Source of the DNA: a virus
Taxonomy: Duplodnaviria; Caudoviricetes
DNA length: 26,915 nucleotides
Virus record (IMG/VR): IMGVR_UViG_3300010052_000134
Coordinates: 1 to 26,915 of that record
Strand: one strand, 5' to 3'
Both the position numbers and the translations under genes were made by a program. Below, piece by piece: positions 917 through 19,765 of the stretch; the stretch's first letter is position 1, and each line of letters begins with the position of its first letter. The notes under the pieces are model-generated. The model was not told the DNA's origin, searched no databases, and saw only the letters and a program-made list of their open reading frames with translations.

Positions 917-2377
917 TTAGACGAGGAACTGGAGCAACGCGGCGATCGTGACCAAGTTGTTCACGAGGTCCGGGCGGAACAGGATGTTCACGCGGTTCGC
1001 ATCGTTCGGATCGCGCACGACTTGCAACGATTCGATGAACCCGTTGACGTCTTCGATCAGGCCCGCCGCCTGCCATTCGACGGCGAGCGCGATCATCTCG
1101 GCGCGAATGTCCTTCGGCCGCGCGATCGTCGGGCCGCCGGGATGATCGTCGTTCGCGAGCTTGTGGCGCGGGAAGCGCAGCTGCACGCGCGTCCACATCG
1201 ACCAGCGCACATAGGCGAGCGTGCGCATCGTCGTCACGTCGAAATACGAGCGATCGAGCGCGCCGGCGGGGTTGGTCTTGTAGTTCGTGCACAGGCGCTC
1301 GATCGCCACCGTGCCGTCGTCGTGCACGATCGTCGTGGCGATGCCGGCGTTCAACAGCGTCTCGCGCTCGTTGCGCGTGCGCCACAGCTCGCGCGACGGC
1401 GCCATGACGGCGGGCAGTGTGAGGGTCTTGCGCTGGCGCGCGGGATCCGGCTCGAACGAGTCTCGCGCGGCGACCTGCGCCGCCTTCAGCCAAGGCGTGG
1501 TGGCTTCGTTGCCCGCGTCGGTGAACGAGAAATGCGGCGTGTTGTGCAGATTGCCGAGCGTCGTCAACGTGCCCACGGATCCGCGCACGCCGGCATGGGC
1601 GTAGCTGTCGTTCATCTGCATGGCGATGAAGCGACGCGCGAGCTCGGTCTTGATGTCGGCCAGGGCGGCGGCGGAGGTCCACGGCCAGACGATCGTGTCG
1701 TAACGCGCATCGCCCATCGCGGCGATCAGAGCCGACGGCGAGGGGTCCGACGTGCCGCCGGACATGGCGACGATCGCCAGACCGACCCCCGCCGGCAAGG
1801 CCTGGCCGGCGTAGTAGGAATGGCGCACGTCGATCGCGTTGCCGATCTCGCCCTTGTGTTTGGACGTGAGCGTTACGACGGCGTTGACGGCGGCGGCCGT
1901 CACCAAAAGATCGAGATCGGCCGTGATCGCGGCGACGAGGGCGGCGGCGATCGTGTTGGCCGAGTCGGCGGCGGCCACGCCGACGCGGACGTTGCGCCCG
2001 CCGATATACATCTCGATCGTGCCGGCGGCCGTGGCCGGGCCGGTGACGGTGACGGTGCCGGTTGCCGACGCGCCCGCGTTCGCGTCGTCGATCGGCAAGG
2101 CGAAGGTCTCGGTGTAGTCGTCGAGCGCCTTGAAGTTCGCGACGATCTGCGCGAGCTGCGAGCCGCGACCGAACATCGCGGTCGCCTCGGGGCCGTTGAA
2201 AATCGGCTGGATAACGCCCGACGGCGCCGTTCCGGTGGAGTGCCGTTGGCCGACCAGGAGCGCGCGCGGGCGGCGCACCGGCAAACCGCGCATCGCGCGG
2301 CTCGGGTCGATCTCGATGAACGTACCGCCCGTCAACAGGGAGACGGGCACTTGGGCGAACGCGGAGGAACTAAGCAT
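917..2377 (-). CDS. Tail sheath protein (Mu gpL-like)
   Basis: 486 aa with FGRGSQLA, DPARQ, TNPAGALDRSYFDV..RTL.Y.R, RFPRHKLAND and RVNILFRPDLVN motifs typical of Mu-type sheaths; AAGGAG RBS. Confidence 0.95.
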   Translation of the reverse strand: MLSSSAFAQVPVSLLTGGTFIEIDPSRAMRGLPVRRPRALLVGQRHSTGTAPSGVIQPIFNGPEATAMFGRGSQLAQIVANFKALDDYTETFALPIDDANAGASATGTVTVTGPATAAGTIEMYIGGRNVRVGVAAADSANTIAAALVAAITADLDLLVTAAAVNAVVTLTSKHKGEIGNAIDVRHSYYAGQALPAGVGLAIVAMSGGTSDPSPSALIAAMGDARYDTIVWPWTSAAALADIKTELARRFIAMQMNDSYAHAGVRGSVGTLTTLGNLHNTPHFSFTDAGNEATTPWLKAAQVAARDSFEPDPARQRKTLTLPAVMAPSRELWRTRNERETLLNAGIATTIVHDDGTVAIERLCTNYKTNPAGALDRSYFDVTTMRTLAYVRWSMWTRVQLRFPRHKLANDDHPGGPTIARPKDIRAEMIALAVEWQAAGLIEDVNGFIESLQVVRDPNDANRVNILFRPDLVNNLVTIAALLQFLV

Positions 2378-2398
2378 CGTCGTCTCCTTGAGTTGCGG

Positions 2399-2572
2399 TT
2401 AAGCCTTCTTCTTCGGCTCGACGATCGGCATGATCGTCACGTCGCCTTCCATCAGGCGCCGCTGCCAATGCGGCGAATCCGAAAGATCCTCGCCGCCGGC
2501 TTTCAGGACGCGCTTGCCGTCCTCGAAATGGACGGTCCGGCCTTCCGCCGGCGTGATGCGAAACAGGTTCAT
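2399..2572 (-). CDS. DUF2635 / Mu gp38-like small protein, 57 aa (absent from ORF track)
   Basis: Manual translation MNLFRITPAEGRTVHFEDGKRVLKAGGEDLSDSPHWQRRLMEGDVTIMPIVEPKKKA*; PxxGRxV and WxRRLxxGDV motifs; canonical position before the sheath gene. Confidence 0.88.
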   Translation of the reverse strand: MNLFRITPAEGRTVHFEDGKRVLKAGGEDLSDSPHWQRRLMEGDVTIMPIVEPKKKA

Positions 2573-2763
2573 TCGTGGATCCTCACGGGTTCGGGAGCGG
2601 CGGGACTACGGGGCGACAAAGGGATCAGGACGTTCACGCGGCTTGGATCCGCCGCGTCGCGTTCGACGCGCACACCGGCGATCATCTTCTGGACGGCGTC
2701 GTAGACGAGTGCCGCGCGGATGGCGCGTGCACGGCGTGCGGCGGCGAATTCGCTGCGCATCAT
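2569..2763 (-). CDS. Hypothetical 64-aa protein resembling the tail sheath C-terminus
   Basis: MMRSEF...IRAALV...VRVERDAADPSRVNVLIP...; ATGA overlaps with both neighbours; GTGAGG RBS. Confidence 0.7.
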   Translation of the reverse strand: MMRSEFAAARRARAIRAALVYDAVQKMIAGVRVERDAADPSRVNVLIPLSPRSPAAPEPVRIHE

Positions 2764-3383
2764 TCGGTCCTCACGTTGCCGGTTTGCGAAAAGTCGGGAT
2801 CGTTCGGCGGGATGGCCTGATGCGGCGCGATGTCCCAGTCGGCGCGCACCTTCAGGAAATCGTCGAGCACGAGGCCGCGCCGCGTGCGATCGGCGATGGC
2901 CGTACATTCGGCTTCGATGACGTAAACGACGAGGCGCTGTTTCTTGATGATCCCGTTGCGCAGCTGGAGAACGCGCTTCACGTCCATCGCTTCGACAAGA
3001 CCGTCTTCGCCTTCGATCCCGAGGAACGACCCTTCGAGTGCTGCCATCGCATCGCCCGAGATCAGGTAGGCGCCCGGCGCTTTGAGGTCTTCGCTCTTGC
3101 GCCCTTCGTCGGCGCCGCGCGTCGAAGTCGTCGCGATGATGATCTGCCAACGCAGCGGGACGTGCTTCTTCGCGCCGACATTCAGCATGTCGCCGGTGCC
3201 GGCGAAATTGACCAGCACGCCGGGCAGCTGCTTCAGCGCCGCCGCGACCGACGATTCGTCGTCCACGTCGAAGGATCCGGCATAGCCTTGGATGTCGCGC
3301 ACCGTGTAGCCGATCTTCTCGTGCGTTAGAAACGCGCGCAGCCGGCCGATGATCGCGTCCTCGATCTTGGCGAACTTGATCAT
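2760..3383 (-). CDS. Mu gp37-like (DUF1834) tail completion/terminator protein
   Basis: MIKFAKIEDAIIGRLR...YAGSFD...LPGVLVNFAG...PGAYLI; GGAGG RBS; ATGA overlap with the upstream gene; synteny. Confidence 0.85.
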   Translation of the reverse strand: MIKFAKIEDAIIGRLRAFLTHEKIGYTVRDIQGYAGSFDVDDESSVAAALKQLPGVLVNFAGTGDMLNVGAKKHVPLRWQIIIATTSTRGADEGRKSEDLKAPGAYLISGDAMAALEGSFLGIEGEDGLVEAMDVKRVLQLRNGIIKKQRLVVYVIEAECTAIADRTRRGLVLDDFLKVRADWDIAPHQAIPPNDPDFSQTGNVRTE

Positions 3384-3847
3384 TTCCCACCGCCTCCAGA
3401 CAAGGGCTCCGCCAGCCAGTCGCCGAGGATGGCGCGCGTCTCGGTGGCGTCGTCCTTCGACATGCCGATGAAGGGACGCGCGGGGATCGTCGCGGATCCG
3501 CCGCGCCCGGCCTTGCCGCCGAATTGATGGATCGCCGCATAGACGCGGTTCGTGCCGACCGTCACCTTGTCGCGTTCGGCGCGATGCGTGACCGACTGGC
3601 GCATGTGGCCGGTATCGACGAGCGTTTGCCCGTTGGTCTGAAGCGCGCGGATCGAGGGGCGCCACGGCGAGCCTTCGGGATCGACGCCCTTCTCGAAGCG
3701 ATGCAGGGTCGAAGTGACGAGCGAGCCGCCGATCTCGTCGTAGACCGGCGTCATGTCCGCGATGCGGCCGCGCAAGCGATAGAGCCGCTTGCCGATATCG
3801 GCCAGCGCCACTTGATCGACGGTGACGGGGAGCGATACGCCGGCCAT
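3380..3847 (-). CDS. Virion morphogenesis protein (Mu gpG / P2 gpS family)
   Basis: RFEKGVDPEGSPW, LVDTGHMRQSV, VGTNRVYAAIHQFGG and IPARPFIGMS signature motifs; ATG at 3847 overlaps the upstream stop. Confidence 0.93.
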   Translation of the reverse strand: MAGVSLPVTVDQVALADIGKRLYRLRGRIADMTPVYDEIGGSLVTSTLHRFEKGVDPEGSPWRPSIRALQTNGQTLVDTGHMRQSVTHRAERDKVTVGTNRVYAAIHQFGGKAGRGGSATIPARPFIGMSKDDATETRAILGDWLAEPLSGGGGK

Positions 3848-4287: not shown

Positions 4288-4743
4288 TTAGTTCGGGGCG
4301 CCGAAGTCGTGGACGACTTCTTCGACCGTGAGCTCGGCGTCGTCGCGGATCGCCTTGATCTTCGCGGGATGCTCGGACAGCCGGACGTAGACAGGTTCCA
4401 CGCCGAAGATGATCTTCGAGCGCTCGTGGCCATCCTTCTTCGCGACGACGCGCAGCGCGTTCGGCTTGGGCCCATCCGACTTAGCCGCGGCGCTTTCCGC
4501 CGGCGCCTTCGCCAAGGTCGCCGGCGCTTGCTGCTGTTGCTGCTGCTGCTGCTGCGCGTCGTCTTCGAAGTCGTGCTGCACGGCTTCGACGATCAGTTGA
4601 CCGTTCGGTTTGCCTTCGGCTTCGAGGGCTTCGCCCTGCGATTTCGAAAGGTCGGTGAACTTGATGAAGCGCGGCGTGCGCGTGAAGACGAAGCCGGCGC
4701 GGCGGAACGACTCGGGGCGAGAGGTGATCTTGAAGGCGTTCAT
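4288..4743 (-). CDS. HI1506/Mu gp35-like protein, apparently two tandem domains joined by a poly-Q/Ala linker
   Basis: ITSRPESFRRAGFVF...QGEALEAE...LIVE N-domain; follows the capsid gene; GAGGA RBS. Confidence 0.7.
   Translation of the reverse strand: MNAFKITSRPESFRRAGFVFTRTPRFIKFTDLSKSQGEALEAEGKPNGQLIVEAVQHDFEDDAQQQQQQQQQAPATLAKAPAESAAAKSDGPKPNALRVVAKKDGHERSKIIFGVEPVYVRLSEHPAKIKAIRDDAELTVEEVVHDFGAPN
4528..4554 (-). repeat. (CAG/CAA) trinucleotide tract encoding poly-Q (nine codons by my count)
   Basis: Plus strand ttg ctg ctg ttg ctg ctg ctg ctg ctg. Confidence 0.9.
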
Positions 4744-14521: not shown

Positions 14522-14695
14522 TCAGCCGACTAAGGATTTCAGGGCGCTGATGGCGATGACCACGCCGCAGATGAAAAGCACGATGCCGAAGATGGCACCG
14601 GACGTGTTACCCGAGCTCTTGGCACCGGCACCGCCGATAAGCGCAAGCAGGGCGCCAATGATGAGAAGGAAAACGTCGAGGGCATTGGCGAACAT
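14522..14695 (-). CDS. Small two-TM membrane protein, 57 aa
   Basis: MFANALDVFLLIIGALLALIGGAGAKSSGNTSGAIFGIVLFICGVVIAISALKSLVG*; GAGGT RBS. Confidence 0.75.
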   Translation of the reverse strand: MFANALDVFLLIIGALLALIGGAGAKSSGNTSGAIFGIVLFICGVVIAISALKSLVG

Positions 14696-14703
14696 GATTG
14701 ACC

Positions 14704-15207
14704 TCACGCGACGATGACGGGGACGCGGGCGACCGCTTGCATCAATCCGGAATCGAACTCGCGCGCGTCGATCAGCGCGGCTTGTTCGTGCCCGCATTCC
14801 ATGCGGAAGATCGTGTTGAGTGCCAAGCGCAGCTTCGTGATGTTGACGCGCGAGTCGCCATCGCGAAGGCCGAAGTCCTCGTCGCGGCCGACATTCATTT
14901 CCTTCGCGAAGAACGAAATATAGGCTTCGGTGTTGTTGCCGACGTTCACGCCCGCGCTGTTCACATGATTCGGCGGCGCGTACTCGGTGATGATCGTGCT
15001 GGGCGTACGCTTGCGCTTCTTGCCGTAGTCGTTGAGCAGATCGAGGCCGGCGGCGCGAATGCCCTTGGCCATCGTTTTGAAGATGCAGCGGCCTTCCGAG
15101 TCACGGCCCACCAGGCCTTCCCACGGAATGCCGTTGTCCATCAGGTTGCCGGGATTGTTGTTCCGGATACCGGCGACGAGCTTCGCGGGGAAGGGTTTGC
15201 TTTCCAT
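14704..15207 (-). CDS. Probable endolysin, lysozyme-like 'structural protein P5' family
   Basis: GIRNNNPGNL, F.T...GIRA, IITEYAPP, NNTEAYI, RMECG motifs; first gene of the lysis/late operon. Confidence 0.8.
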   Translation of the reverse strand: MESKPFPAKLVAGIRNNNPGNLMDNGIPWEGLVGRDSEGRCIFKTMAKGIRAAGLDLLNDYGKKRKRTPSTIITEYAPPNHVNSAGVNVGNNTEAYISFFAKEMNVGRDEDFGLRDGDSRVNITKLRLALNTIFRMECGHEQAALIDAREFDSGLMQAVARVPVIVA

Positions 15208-16624: not shown

Positions 16625-16830
16625 GCGAGGTTTCCCTTTTTCCAATACGGAAGCTCCGGCTCGGGATCGGCGGACTTCCCGCCGGAATTCAGTTCGGCGA
16701 GCTCGGCCGCGAGCTGCGCCGCGACGGCATGGCGAAGCGCGGCTTCGCGTGCGGCGCGCGATCCGCGCGGGGCAGCGATCCATTTCTCCCTGGCGGCGAT
16801 CGCCGCCTTGCGCGCTTCATCCGCGTTCAT
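16621..16830 (-). CDS. Hypothetical protein, 69 aa
   Basis: MNADEARKAA...ELPYWKKGNLA; GAGGA RBS; ATGA overlaps on both sides. Confidence 0.7.
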   Translation of the reverse strand: MNADEARKAAIAAREKWIAAPRGSRAAREAALRHAVAAQLAAELAELNSGGKSADPEPELPYWKKGNLA

Positions 16831-17222
16831 CGCTTCCTCGCGATCCCGAGTTTGGCATCGGCCTTGCGGGCGAGATCGAGAAGCCGCCGCGCGATCGGCC
16901 CGACGCCGTTGGGCCGGTGCGCGTCGCGTACGCAGTTGAGATCGACGAGCATCACCAGATCGGCGAGGGTCGGCAGCGACGCCGCCTTGCGCGCATTGCA
17001 GGGCGCGCAGGCCAGAACCTTGTTGAAGCGGTTGTTGTCGCCGCCGGCCGCCACGGGAACGAAGTGATCGCAGCTCGCGGCGCGCACCTTGCGCTGGGCC
17101 TCGGCCGCCGCCGTGACGCGCACATTGCCGGGGCTGCGCAGATCGAGCTCGGCCGGGCAGTAGAAGCACAAGCCGCGCTGACGGCGGAGTTGCGTTTGGC
17201 GCCAGCGTTGATGGTCGTTCAT
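16827..17222 (-). CDS. HNH endonuclease-domain protein
   Basis: CFYC...SCDHFVPVAAGGDNNRFNKVLACAPCNARKA. Confidence 0.9.
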   Translation of the reverse strand: MNDHQRWRQTQLRRQRGLCFYCPAELDLRSPGNVRVTAAAEAQRKVRAASCDHFVPVAAGGDNNRFNKVLACAPCNARKAASLPTLADLVMLVDLNCVRDAHRPNGVGPIARRLLDLARKADAKLGIARKR

Positions 17223-17443
17223 TGCACCGGCCGCCGGTGATAGTCGAGACGCTTGCGCGAGCGCAGCGGCACGGCTTTGGTGAAGGCGTCCTTTGCACGC
17301 ACGAGTGCATTGGCGATGCGCGTGTCTTCGCGATCGATGACGTGCATGTCCGTGAGCCGGTTGTCGATCAGGTCCTGCACGGCCTCGGCCGCGTCGCGAT
17401 CGAGCCCAACGGTGAAGCGCGTTTTCGGGGCGGGCGGTTTCAT
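17219..17443 (-). CDS. Hypothetical protein, 74 aa
   Basis: ATGA-coupled on both sides; GAGG RBS. Confidence 0.7.
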   Translation of the reverse strand: MKPPAPKTRFTVGLDRDAAEAVQDLIDNRLTDMHVIDREDTRIANALVRAKDAFTKAVPLRSRKRLDYHRRPVQ

Positions 17444-17643
17444 CGCGACGCCTCGCTGATCTCGACTGGAAGACGCTTGTGCGCGATCTGGCGGGCTAGC
17501 TCATGGGCATCGTGAAACGCCATTGCATCGGCGACCGTTCGCCGCTTTCGATCGCGGATCGCGTCGCGTGCCGGCCAGACGAAGGTTTTCACCAGGAACG
17601 CCACGGCCGCTTGTTCGGGCGAACCCTCGTATCCGTTCGTCAT
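17440..17643 (-). CDS. Hypothetical protein, 67 aa
   Basis: ATGA-coupled on both sides. Confidence 0.68.
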   Translation of the reverse strand: MTNGYEGSPEQAAVAFLVKTFVWPARDAIRDRKRRTVADAMAFHDAHELARQIAHKRLPVEISEASR

Positions 17644-17846
17644 CGGCGGCCGCCTTGGCGATTGGCGCGCGCCATCTGCCGTTCCTTGGCCTCGGCCACC
17701 AGCGCGGCCGCGAGATCGAGCGACGAGATCCCGAAATAGTCGATCGCCTCGGCATGCGTGCGGCCGTCATCGAGCACGGCGCACGCGGCCTCGCGGGCGT
17801 AGATGGCGCGATCGTCGGGTGCAGCCGAGGCGTCCGCCATCGTCAC
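17640..17846 (-). CDS. Hypothetical protein, 68 aa (possible HTH)
   Basis: GGGAGGG RBS; GRTHAEAIDYFGISS is HTH-like; coupled on both sides. Confidence 0.65.
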   Translation of the reverse strand: MTMADASAAPDDRAIYAREAACAVLDDGRTHAEAIDYFGISSLDLAAALVAEAKERQMARANRQGGRR

Positions 17847-18205
17847 GCCCTCCCAGGTTCGTGGATGTGCGAGCGCCAGGGCAACGGCGCGTCACCCGGC
17901 AGCGCGGCGAGGCGTAAGCGCGCATACTGGGCTGCGCCGAGCAGAACCTCTTCGGGCGTCGGTACGAGAGCGTTCTCGTCGCCGAGCTGATCGGCCATCG
18001 CGCGTGAGCCTTCGCTGAAGAATTTCGCGCCGACAATCATGAGATGGGCGAGCGCCGCGATCAGCACGTCGGCGCGGTGCCTGCCGCCGCCCGTGTTACC
18101 GCACACGTCGTACATCGCCATGGAAAGCGCTGTGACCTTATCGGCCTCTGCCGCCAACAGAACTTGATGGATGGTCGATATGGCTTGCGGGTTCGGCTGT
18201 TCCAT
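17843..18205 (-). CDS. Hypothetical protein, 120 aa
   Basis: GGAGGG RBS; tiles between neighbours; protein-like composition. Confidence 0.72.
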   Translation of the reverse strand: MEQPNPQAISTIHQVLLAAEADKVTALSMAMYDVCGNTGGGRHRADVLIAALAHLMIVGAKFFSEGSRAMADQLGDENALVPTPEEVLLGAAQYARLRLAALPGDAPLPWRSHIHEPGRA

Positions 18206-18208
18206 CGA

Positions 18209-18628
18209 TCAGCCCTCCGCCGGTGCGCGGCGATTGTCGATCGCCTCGCCGGCGCTGGCGCCGGTATGGCCGGGATCGCGCAGTCGGCCATGCGATGCGA
18301 GCGCCTCGTAGAGCGGCAGCTTGTTGGGTGCGATCAGCTCGATCTTCGCCGGCCAGGTGCAAGGCTCGGTGCGATAGGCGCGGCTGCCGACCGCTTTTGC
18401 CGTCGTGTCGATATGCGCGGGATTGCCGAGCGTCGGCGGGCAAGCGCTCTTGTGCTTCGCGCCTTCGCCGTCGATCCAGACGTAGACGAAGATGTCGGGC
18501 CAGCCGTGCCGGCCGTCAGGAATCGAGTGGCGGTGCCGCTCGGCCTCGGCGAGATCGTGACGCACGTCGCGCAGCATGTTGTGCGGGGGCGGCGGCTTGA
18601 TGCCGGCGCGGGGTTGCGTGTCCATCAC
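18209..18628 (-). CDS. Hypothetical protein, about 139 aa
   Basis: Overlaps the upstream stop; AAGGGA RBS; tiles the operon. Confidence 0.65.
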   Translation of the reverse strand: MMDTQPRAGIKPPPPHNMLRDVRHDLAEAERHRHSIPDGRHGWPDIFVYVWIDGEGAKHKSACPPTLGNPAHIDTTAKAVGSRAYRTEPCTWPAKIELIAPNKLPLYEALASHGRLRDPGHTGASAGEAIDNRRAPAEG

Positions 18629-19161
18629 TTCGTTCCCTTCCTGTGGTTCTCAACGTCCTTGAGCGCCGCGCGCACGCGCGCGTCCGCCGGCGTCGGGCCG
18701 GGATGCGGGCGCGCGATCGAGCCGCTCATCAGCGAGCCGGATTGCGGCACGGGCGTGCGGGCGGGCGTCGCGGTTGGCGGTACGACAGCGTCGAAGCGCG
18801 GGATGCGCAGCACGACGTGGTTCTCCGAAATCTCCACGATCTCGACCGGCCGGCGGCTGCACGACCTGCGCGGGATGCCGACGCCGTCGGGGAACGCCGC
18901 CATCAGACGGATGCCGTTCGTCGCTTCGCCATCCGGTTGCAGCTTGTAGCCGGCCGGCGCGCGCTCGACGCGCAGCATGCCGGCATGTTCGGCCGTGCCG
19001 AAGCGCAGCGACACCAGCGCGCCCTTCACGAAGGTCTTCGGCCGGGTGTCGCCGAACGCGATGTACAGCTTCTTGCCGTGCGGCCCGTCGCGGCTAACGC
19101 TCACGACACCGATCCGGGTGTCGGCGCTGCGGCTCCGCGATTTGAACTCGAACCACGCCAT
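18625..19161 (-). CDS. Hypothetical protein, 178 aa
   Basis: Start MAWFEFKSRS immediately after the gam stop; AAGGGA RBS; beta-rich N-terminal part and Pro-rich tail. Confidence 0.72.
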   Translation of the reverse strand: MAWFEFKSRSRSADTRIGVVSVSRDGPHGKKLYIAFGDTRPKTFVKGALVSLRFGTAEHAGMLRVERAPAGYKLQPDGEATNGIRLMAAFPDGVGIPRRSCSRRPVEIVEISENHVVLRIPRFDAVVPPTATPARTPVPQSGSLMSGSIARPHPGPTPADARVRAALKDVENHRKGTK

Positions 19162-19162
19162 G

Positions 19163-19765
19163 TCACTTTCCCTTCGCTTTGGATTTCTTGGGCGTGGCGT
19201 CGGGTGCCACCGTGGCGGCGGCACCCTTCAGCTTGCGCGCCTTGCCCGAGATGTCGTCGGTCACTTCGAGCGGACGGACGAAGAACCGCTCGACCTGCTC
19301 GATCTCGATGCCGTTGATCGCCTCGACTTCCTCGGGCGCGGCGAGCATCGATTGCTTGTCGATCGTCTCGGTCGTGCGGATATGGTGGTCGAGCTTGAAG
19401 CGCCGCAGCCGTGCGATCAGTTCGGGTTCGTCGTCGGCGTCGAACTTCAAAGACGGGTTGCCGTAGCGCCAGCCGAAGACGCCCGACATGAACGTGACCG
19501 AGCGTTTGCCGTCCTTCAGCAGTTCGTCCTTGTTGGCCTCTGCATAGGCTTGCAGCGAGTCCACGTTGGCCTGGAGCGCTTCGGCCGCGTCGGCGATCTG
19601 CTTGACGAATTTCTCGGTCGCGACGGCGACCGCCTCGTCGCGTTTCAGGATCAGGGTATCGAGCGCGCGTTTGTGCTGGCCGATGATGTGGAGGACGTTG
19701 TCGGCTTGCGTCGCGTTCTGCGGCACCGGCAAAGCGGGCACCGTCAGGGATTTCTTCTTGGCCAT
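19163..19765 (-). CDS. gam: Mu Gam-like host-nuclease inhibitor, 200 aa
   Basis: LQAYAEANKDELLKDGKRSVTFMSGVFGWR.GNPSL, IRTTETIDKQSML, GIEIEQVERFFVRP; AAGGAG RBS. Confidence 0.93.
   Translation of the reverse strand: MAKKKSLTVPALPVPQNATQADNVLHIIGQHKRALDTLILKRDEAVAVATEKFVKQIADAAEALQANVDSLQAYAEANKDELLKDGKRSVTFMSGVFGWRYGNPSLKFDADDEPELIARLRRFKLDHHIRTTETIDKQSMLAAPEEVEAINGIEIEQVERFFVRPLEVTDDISGKARKLKGAAATVAPDATPKKSKAKGK

Follow-up and report, generated by a model that had tools for sequence, protein, structure and literature searches.

Why does a Mu-like phage carry a small sheath-like gene in the middle of its tail operon? The window analyzed here (the whole 26,915-nucleotide stretch) is a provirus record of 26.9 kb, with a tool-estimated completeness of 70%, from a Mu-like transposable myophage. 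It encodes a transposase, a transposition protein, a Gam-like protein, terminase, portal, protease, and capsid, and the tail region after the capsid gene is ordered gp36, gpG-like, gp37, gp38, sheath, tube, and tail chaperone. An alphaproteobacterial host is hinted at, because the closest sheath cluster includes a member labeled Tagaea sp. by its source. An earlier note on this DNA had reported a 64-amino-acid open reading frame (ORF) between the gp37-like and gp38-like genes, coupled to each by an ATGA overlap. This arrangement is confirmed: the ORF (P0001, here the mini-ORF) lies on the minus strand, its neighbors match PF08873 and DUF2635, and both overlaps are present in the sequence (Table 1).

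Table 1. Features of the mini-ORF and neighboring tail genes, by position in the window
Feature	Positions	Strand	Remarks
Mu gp37-like tail terminator gene	2760..3383	-	PF08873, E 3.5e-17
GAGGA site and ATGA overlap, gp37/mini-ORF junction	2760..2775	-	Sequence
Mini-ORF, 64 aa (P0001)	2569..2763	-	Between gp37 and gp38 genes, upstream of sheath
Mini-ORF residues 3-29, predicted single helix	2677..2757	-	Arg/Ala-rich, then amphipathic; coding-like codons; sheath likeness borderline at most
Mini-ORF residues 31-48, sheath-type beta-hairpin motif	2620..2673	-	Equivalent to sheath 451-468; predicted strands 32-35 and 43-46
Mini-ORF residues 49-64, Pro-rich tail	2572..2619	-	Non-coding-like codons; contains gp38 ribosome-binding-like site
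GAGGA site and ATGA overlap, mini-ORF/gp38 junction	2569..2587	-	Sequence
Mu gp38-like gene (DUF2635)	2399..2572	-	PF10948, E 3.8e-9
Resident tail sheath gene (P0002)	917..2377	-	PF17482/PF17481/PF04984; C-terminal domain, hairpin, and C-arm diverge from family consensus
Resident sheath hairpin (residues 451-468)	974..1027	-	37/54 identical to mini-ORF hairpin

The mini-ORF is the sole ORF in the insertion and is co-oriented with the late operon to which its overlaps couple it. An alternative in-frame ATG at positions 2760-2758 is better spaced from the GAGGA ribosome-binding-like site. By eye, the two junctions are imperfect gapped repeats of one another; the repeat is absent from the list of an ungapped repeat finder, and any two start regions may look alike. 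Because neither a sigma-70-like promoter nor a terminator was found in positions 2200-3600 by a scan that misses nonconsensus promoters, the mini-protein would likely be made with the late genes and only in the lytic phase. In the RNA runs, just 6% of the words were present. An assembly artifact does not account for the insert, because contigs from two different studies bridge its junctions without gaps: a contig of run X7 spans positions 2686-2838 with 5 differences, and a contig of run X2 spans 2440-2697 with 24 differences, each covering part of the mini-ORF and neither the whole. A joint in run X1 that omits 2077-2825 was disregarded, as one of its sides is only 24 nt long.

The earlier note had likened this ORF to the tail sheath's C terminus and had proposed a profile search. 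Against hidden Markov models of 116 related sheaths (resident sheath excluded), the mini-ORF scored 17-24 bits, compared with at most 11.4 bits for 5,000 shuffles. It was also the top non-sheath ORF among 36,062 ORFs of 242 loci, with the runner-up at 8.2 bits once one frameshifted sheath end (in locus L236) is set aside; in that locus, the sheath C-arm (positions 4341-4424) is encoded in a different frame next to an ambiguous base, which probably reflects a frameshift from sequencing. The score is concentrated in residues 31-48, which fit the conserved V-E-R-D-x-x-D-P-N/S-R-V-N motif at sheath positions 451-468 and reach 35.9 bits, compared with 35.1 bits for the resident sheath and 43 ± 10 bits for 294 real sheath ends (19th percentile). 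One position departs from the motif: S41 stands where 86% of aligned sheaths have a conserved Asn.

Could such a short match have arisen by chance, or through an assembly chimera? Just 16-18 residues match, and the library-wide E values are weak: phrog_165 matches residues 20-49 with 14 bits (E 0.026), and a Pfam search returned no family at E ≤ 1, so that the curated score of PF17482 was not reached. Nevertheless, this explanation is highly improbable and is largely refuted by several lines of evidence. Among about 2 million non-sheath 18-mers, the runner-up reaches no more than 7.2 bits, and a DNA profile (nhmmer) matches positions 2679-2621 with an E value of 1.2e-6 within the window. The motif is also specific to sheaths: it has at least 119 matches in IMG/VR, and the 80 examined, one per locus, all lie in sheath ORFs, none stand-alone. 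The contigs of two other studies that bridge both junctions argue against a chimera. A tblastn search of 2.3 Gb of phage genomes gave nine weak records (E 1-9), all nine in sheath C termini.

The likeness is far beyond chance for residues 31-48 and does not clearly extend to the flanks. Residues 1-30 score 0.1 bit against the sheath domain I helices, where real sheaths score 62 ± 16 bits (P = 0.26), and the previously proposed alignment of IRAALV with IRAEMI is not upheld; pairwise BLOSUM comparison of residues 2-32 gives a borderline signal (P about 0.05-0.06) in a different register, RSEF with RAEL. Residues 49-64 score -71 bits against the sheath C-arm (residues 469-484). Both donor arms of the sheath (N- and C-terminal) and its domains II and III are absent from the 64-amino-acid product, and the match begins and ends with the predicted two-strand hairpin, stopping just before the PD/C-arm motif. 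Judged from its sequence, the feature is a sheath hairpin and not a sheath C-terminal domain, because the sheath-like part comprises 16-18 residues, preceded by residues that are borderline at most.

A single-sequence AlphaFold2 model (mean pLDDT 80, pTM 0.45) shows a helix at residues 3-29 and strands at 32-35 and 43-46; the helix is one long helix, and the domain I helices that brace the hairpin in sheaths are not recognizable in the mini-ORF. The ESM Atlas model is poorer (pLDDT 0.50). Searched with the mini-ORF model, Foldseek returned no match at E ≤ 0.001 and the best VIA-align Z score was 3.4; a Mu chain of sheath length ranked fourth in the fold search, without significance (E 2.4, root mean square deviation 14).

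We considered whether the hairpin derives from the phage's own sheath gene. The 15-of-16-nucleotide match between the two genes that had been noticed earlier exists, and that exact 16-mer reaches at most 14/16 in 185 other sheath ends. It is nonetheless no sign of copying from the resident sheath: when any 16-nt window is allowed, 5 of 187 sheath ends attain 15/16. When sheath ends are ordered by identity over the whole 54-nt hairpin, the resident one comes 17th of 187 (best, 40/54), and by pairwise protein score to the mini-ORF hairpin it comes about 226th of 362; these ranks led us to reject a recent duplication from the resident gene. Among the 187 sheath ends, no donor was closer than 40/54 nt, and nothing convincing in the window or the loci matched the 5' and tail parts of the insert. 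The mini-ORF retains equivalents of consensus residues E454, P460, I467, and P468, which the resident sheath lacks.

The resident sheath has itself departed from its family in this region. In a tree of 20 of the 120-odd sheaths, P0002 groups with its closest relatives, P0003/P0125 and P0007/P0126, in one clade (support 98/98 for residues 1-375 and 100/98 for the last 111 residues), whose stem measures 0.074 for residues 1-375 and 0.26 for the last 111. Relative to the outgroup consensus, the clade carries 16-26 derived changes in residues 376-485, compared with 3-5 in sister sheaths; in residues 29-375, P0003 and P0007 are nearly even with their sisters (e.g., 22/23 and 23/21) and P0002 is moderately raised (30/18). 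Hairpin scores for P0002, P0003, and P0007 are 23, 17, and 11 bits, compared with 39-51 bits in nine other close sheaths, and C-arm scores are 24, 27, and 22 bits, compared with 47-54 bits in the same nine. The C-terminal positions changed in this clade are otherwise 70-90% conserved. This faster change of the resident handshake domain indicates some pressure acting on a surface that is ordinarily conserved. The pairing seen here, a mini-gene that keeps the family-consensus hairpin while the C-terminal domain of the resident sheath has diverged fastest, is a new observation; the link between the mini-gene and the re-keyed sheath is a single coincidence, not a correlation.

A separate observation concerns gp37. 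At its C terminus (window positions 2760-2860), the last predicted strand does not show the D-A-x-D-x-V-x-L-P pattern that is common among 139 gp37 ends aligned; this strand may track the re-keyed sheath.

Codon use divides the mini-ORF at the end of the hairpin. The coding-like bias in frame is 0.54 for codons 2-30 and 0.35 for codons 31-48 (off-frame 99th percentiles, -0.08 and 0.25, respectively) and -0.69 for codons 49-64; the score of the whole ORF, 0.18, falls under the 1st percentile of real genes (0.29). Residues 49-64 look like a read-through spacer. Strain variation agrees for this tail. Among the X2 differences listed, seven nucleotides change in its 48 nt, with four of five changed codons nonsynonymous, and the ratio of synonymous to nonsynonymous codons is 1:4, compared with 17:3 in the sheath (Fisher's exact test on listed variants only, P = 0.012). 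The last 16 codons thus change neutrally. In the hairpin, the listed X2 differences amount to two nucleotides, one synonymous and one giving S41N, towards the sheath consensus; conservation of the hairpin between strains is suggested, because 14 of the 24 X2 differences lie beyond those listed and may fall in codons 23-40. The X7 contig shows no change in the ORF among the differences listed (three of five).

It had been proposed earlier that the mini-ORF might be a retained fragment of a replaced sheath gene. We simulated the decay of sheath codons 425-468 (44 codons) from 127 donors at seven rates, which gave 13,734 stop-free runs. An intact hairpin together with erased helices occurred in only 2 of these and never above 1 in about 2,000 at any rate; even decay of one sheath fragment was rejected. 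The simulation does not cover the recent capture of a short (about 20-codon) piece, and in that form an inert remnant is quite possible: a short piece of another Mu-like phage's sheath, captured with unrelated DNA, now drifting, and read through only because it is located behind the gp37 stop. An intact hairpin between unrelated flanks is also what recent capture into a chimeric ORF would produce, and the neutral, non-coding-like tail and the loss of the conserved Asn at position 41 are in keeping with drift. Such a chimera, however, needs a start, a coding-like helix, and the hairpin in one frame ending at the gp38 ATGA (about 1 in 27, a frame-only estimate), and the piece captured must have been just the acceptor hairpin; the want of a donor closer than the best sheath end also counts against it.

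The distribution of the mini-ORF likewise bears on the inert-remnant explanation. Our set comprised 242 loci including the window (with duplicates), of which 181 had gp37, gp38, and sheath matches; the other 61 had no gp37 or gp38 match, often at contig edges, and were left out of the gap count. In 174 of the 180 other loci of this redundant set, the gp37-gp38 gap is at most 94 nt, with no room for a gene, and 21 of those 174 have the same ATGA overlap between gp37 and gp38. The nearest syntenic relatives (64-66% sheath identity) have gaps of 4-5 nt and no mini-gene. The junction tolerates insertions, a point in favor of an inert piece: six of the 180 loci, representing three distinct cases, carry unrelated inserts. 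These consist of small genes of about 100-110 amino acids, one or two per locus (L139, 2471-2770; L023, 2451-2791; L029/L034/L176 and L031). No second sheath-hairpin ORF was present in the 241 other loci within 3-4 kb flanks.

In the collections searched, the mini-ORF is a singleton, which also favors an inert remnant. A search of 5.8 billion proteins gave three candidates near its length, of which only the mini-ORF itself matched, and 509 candidates at longer length, none with E ≤ 10. Among 1.84 billion representatives, we found the mini-ORF itself and three fibronectin-repeat proteins, which were rejected as repeat artifacts; because P0001 is its own 50% representative, cluster mates at 50% would be hidden in this search. 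IMG/VR contained no homolog by protein or by two DNA patterns, and none was found in phage and plasmid collections, the ESM Atlas, or PDB sequences; NCBIfam and PADLOC 2.0 (library dated 2023) gave no match. A match to phrog_23432 (E 0.025) was rejected, as this family also turns up in 5 of 14 control genomes and in all 4 of the unrelated ones examined. Genome searches for the closest relatives of the sheath returned no sheath above 47% identity. The earlier note had held that a lack of intact homologs or neutral evolution would speak against a functional gene. The first was found in part, in that no full-length homolog turned up in any protein or DNA collection searched, and the second applies to the last 16 codons only.

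What might a free sheath hairpin do? In Mu, domain I contains a two-stranded sheet that takes up the N-arm and C-arm from subunits in the adjacent ring and, in the last ring, the C-terminal hairpin of gp37 (PMC11915804). In the Milano sheath, gp20, the first 23 residues form one arm and the last 18 the other, with the C-arm as donor arm, and BW1 accepts sheath arms by the same mechanism (PMC10811340); in AlgoCIS, Alg9 and Alg16 mimic the handshake (PMC8894135). To start and stop sheaths, gp25-like initiators and caps rely on such mimicry (PMC8894135, PMC11915804). By the Mu gp39 alignment, the mini-protein model, and the Mu and Milano structure papers, sheath residues 451-468 probably form the two-stranded acceptor sheet. 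The mini-protein is predicted to be a sheath-type hairpin on a helical stalk, and we infer that it would work like a handshake mimic and that selection retained the hairpin while the flanks diverged. Because it would accept strands and could not donate them, it would be a terminator or a sink.

The best reading, which we hold tentatively and rate somewhat short of an even chance, is a putative late-expressed, acceptor-only handshake mimic that acts as a decoy or sink for non-self partners. The idea of a sheath mimic, already raised in the earlier note, fits in that the match is confined to the hairpin, both donor arms are missing, and uniform decay is rejected, although the sheath-like part is no longer than 16-18 residues. 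A self partner is less likely than a non-self one, because the mini-ORF hairpin is of the consensus type and the resident handshake has moved on. Likely partners would be the consensus-type sheath arms of co-replicating myophages or, alternatively, a host or prophage factor that recognizes the consensus hairpin; the re-keyed sheath of the phage itself would escape. Interference with competing phages had also been suggested before, and its prophage-state form (superinfection interference) is disfavored, because the gene is co-oriented with and overlap-coupled into the late operon and a promoter was not found. A 2026 preprint mentions that bacterial STAND receptors might sense sheaths, but only as a possibility (10.64898/2026.01.04.697583).

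A bolder version of this reading, which we consider doubtful, is that the re-keyed sheath and the ancestral acceptor hairpin kept as a late mini-protein form a lock-and-decoy pair, in which the mini-protein would soak up a sheath-recognizing host factor or jam the sheaths of competing myophages while the phage's own tail is spared.

Capping or assembly control of the phage's own tail, another of the functions proposed earlier, is unlikely in our estimation. Here the mini-protein would transiently bind the C-terminal hairpin of its own gp37 or the arms of its own sheath, as a chaperone, cap, or brake on sheath polymerization. Translational coupling directly behind the terminator gene would suit such a factor, as would the starting and stopping of sheaths by known initiators and caps (PMC8894135, PMC11915804). 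Against it, the gene is dispensable in at least 174 of 180 syntenic loci, and its hairpin is nearer the family consensus than is the resident sheath, whose own hairpin and C-arm have left the consensus retained in the mini-gene; one would expect a self-partner to change along with the resident sheath.

The features tested place the mini-ORF outside the sheath, gp25/gp46, and Tab families. It resembles domain I of the Mu gp39-type sheath (PF17482, phrog_165, PDB 9KHY) in the residue 31-48 motif, but that sheath has about 490 amino acids with arms and domains II and III, which a 64-amino-acid product lacks. The gp25/gp46-like wedge initiators and caps (Mu gp46, Milano BW1, Alg9, and Alg16) are stand-alone handshake mimics that accept or donate beta strands (PMC10811340, PMC8894135, PMC11915804); they are, however, conserved, full folded domains of the baseplate or cap, whereas the mini-ORF is lineage-restricted, has a sheath-like sequence, and sits at the gp37-gp38 site. 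No gp25/gp46 family profile was found in it, either in Pfam at E ≤ 1 or among the PHROG matches listed. In the literature examined, the only known users of handshake mimicry are fixed parts of the tail (initiators, caps, and terminators).

Tab/anti-Tab of Pseudomonas phage JBD26 and Tai/anti-Tai offer a different parallel, as small accessory genes in or near temperate late operons that act on tail assembly (PMC10884400, PMC11364771). Tab is encoded on the opposite strand and has a promoter of its own; its target is the tape measure protein, and it resembles no known domain (PMC10884400). The mini-ORF, in contrast, is co-oriented and ATGA-coupled, with no partner gene or sigma-70-like promoter found in positions 2200-3600; in placement (overlap-coupled, within a late operon) it is like anti-Tab and unlike Tab (PMC10884400). 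A sheath-derived Tab or Tai was not found in the literature examined. Reuse of a sheath-like region outside the virion has a precedent in an E. coli defense protein in which a RelE-like domain is joined to one that is phage-sheath-like (Vassallo et al. 2022; PMC9519451), which is host-side and a nuclease-like fusion, unlike the mini-ORF (PMC9519451). No description of a stand-alone sheath-hairpin gene was found in the open-license papers and preprints searched. If a free 18-residue acceptor hairpin works, it would represent a minimal means of inhibiting or decoying contractile-sheath assembly, and a new way for phages to be in conflict with other phages or with hosts; if inert, the mini-ORF would be an ordinary gene-fragment capture at a permissive junction.

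Some further features of the window and the comparison set were observed. In the early/middle region of the window, positions 16827-19224 hold an HNH endonuclease gene and three ORFs of 120-199 amino acids without a PHROG match. A small hydrophobic ORF (14522-14797), also without a PHROG match at E ≤ 1e-4, lies between the endolysin gene and a phrog_1544 gene and is possibly a holin. The gp35-like gene (4288-4743; weak FluMu_N match) contains a nine-glutamine run within a low-complexity linker. Among the comparison loci, L124-L129 and L131 are seven copies of apparently one Mu-like prophage tail region in a single metagenome-assembled genome (MAG), as expected for replicative transposition or assembly duplication.
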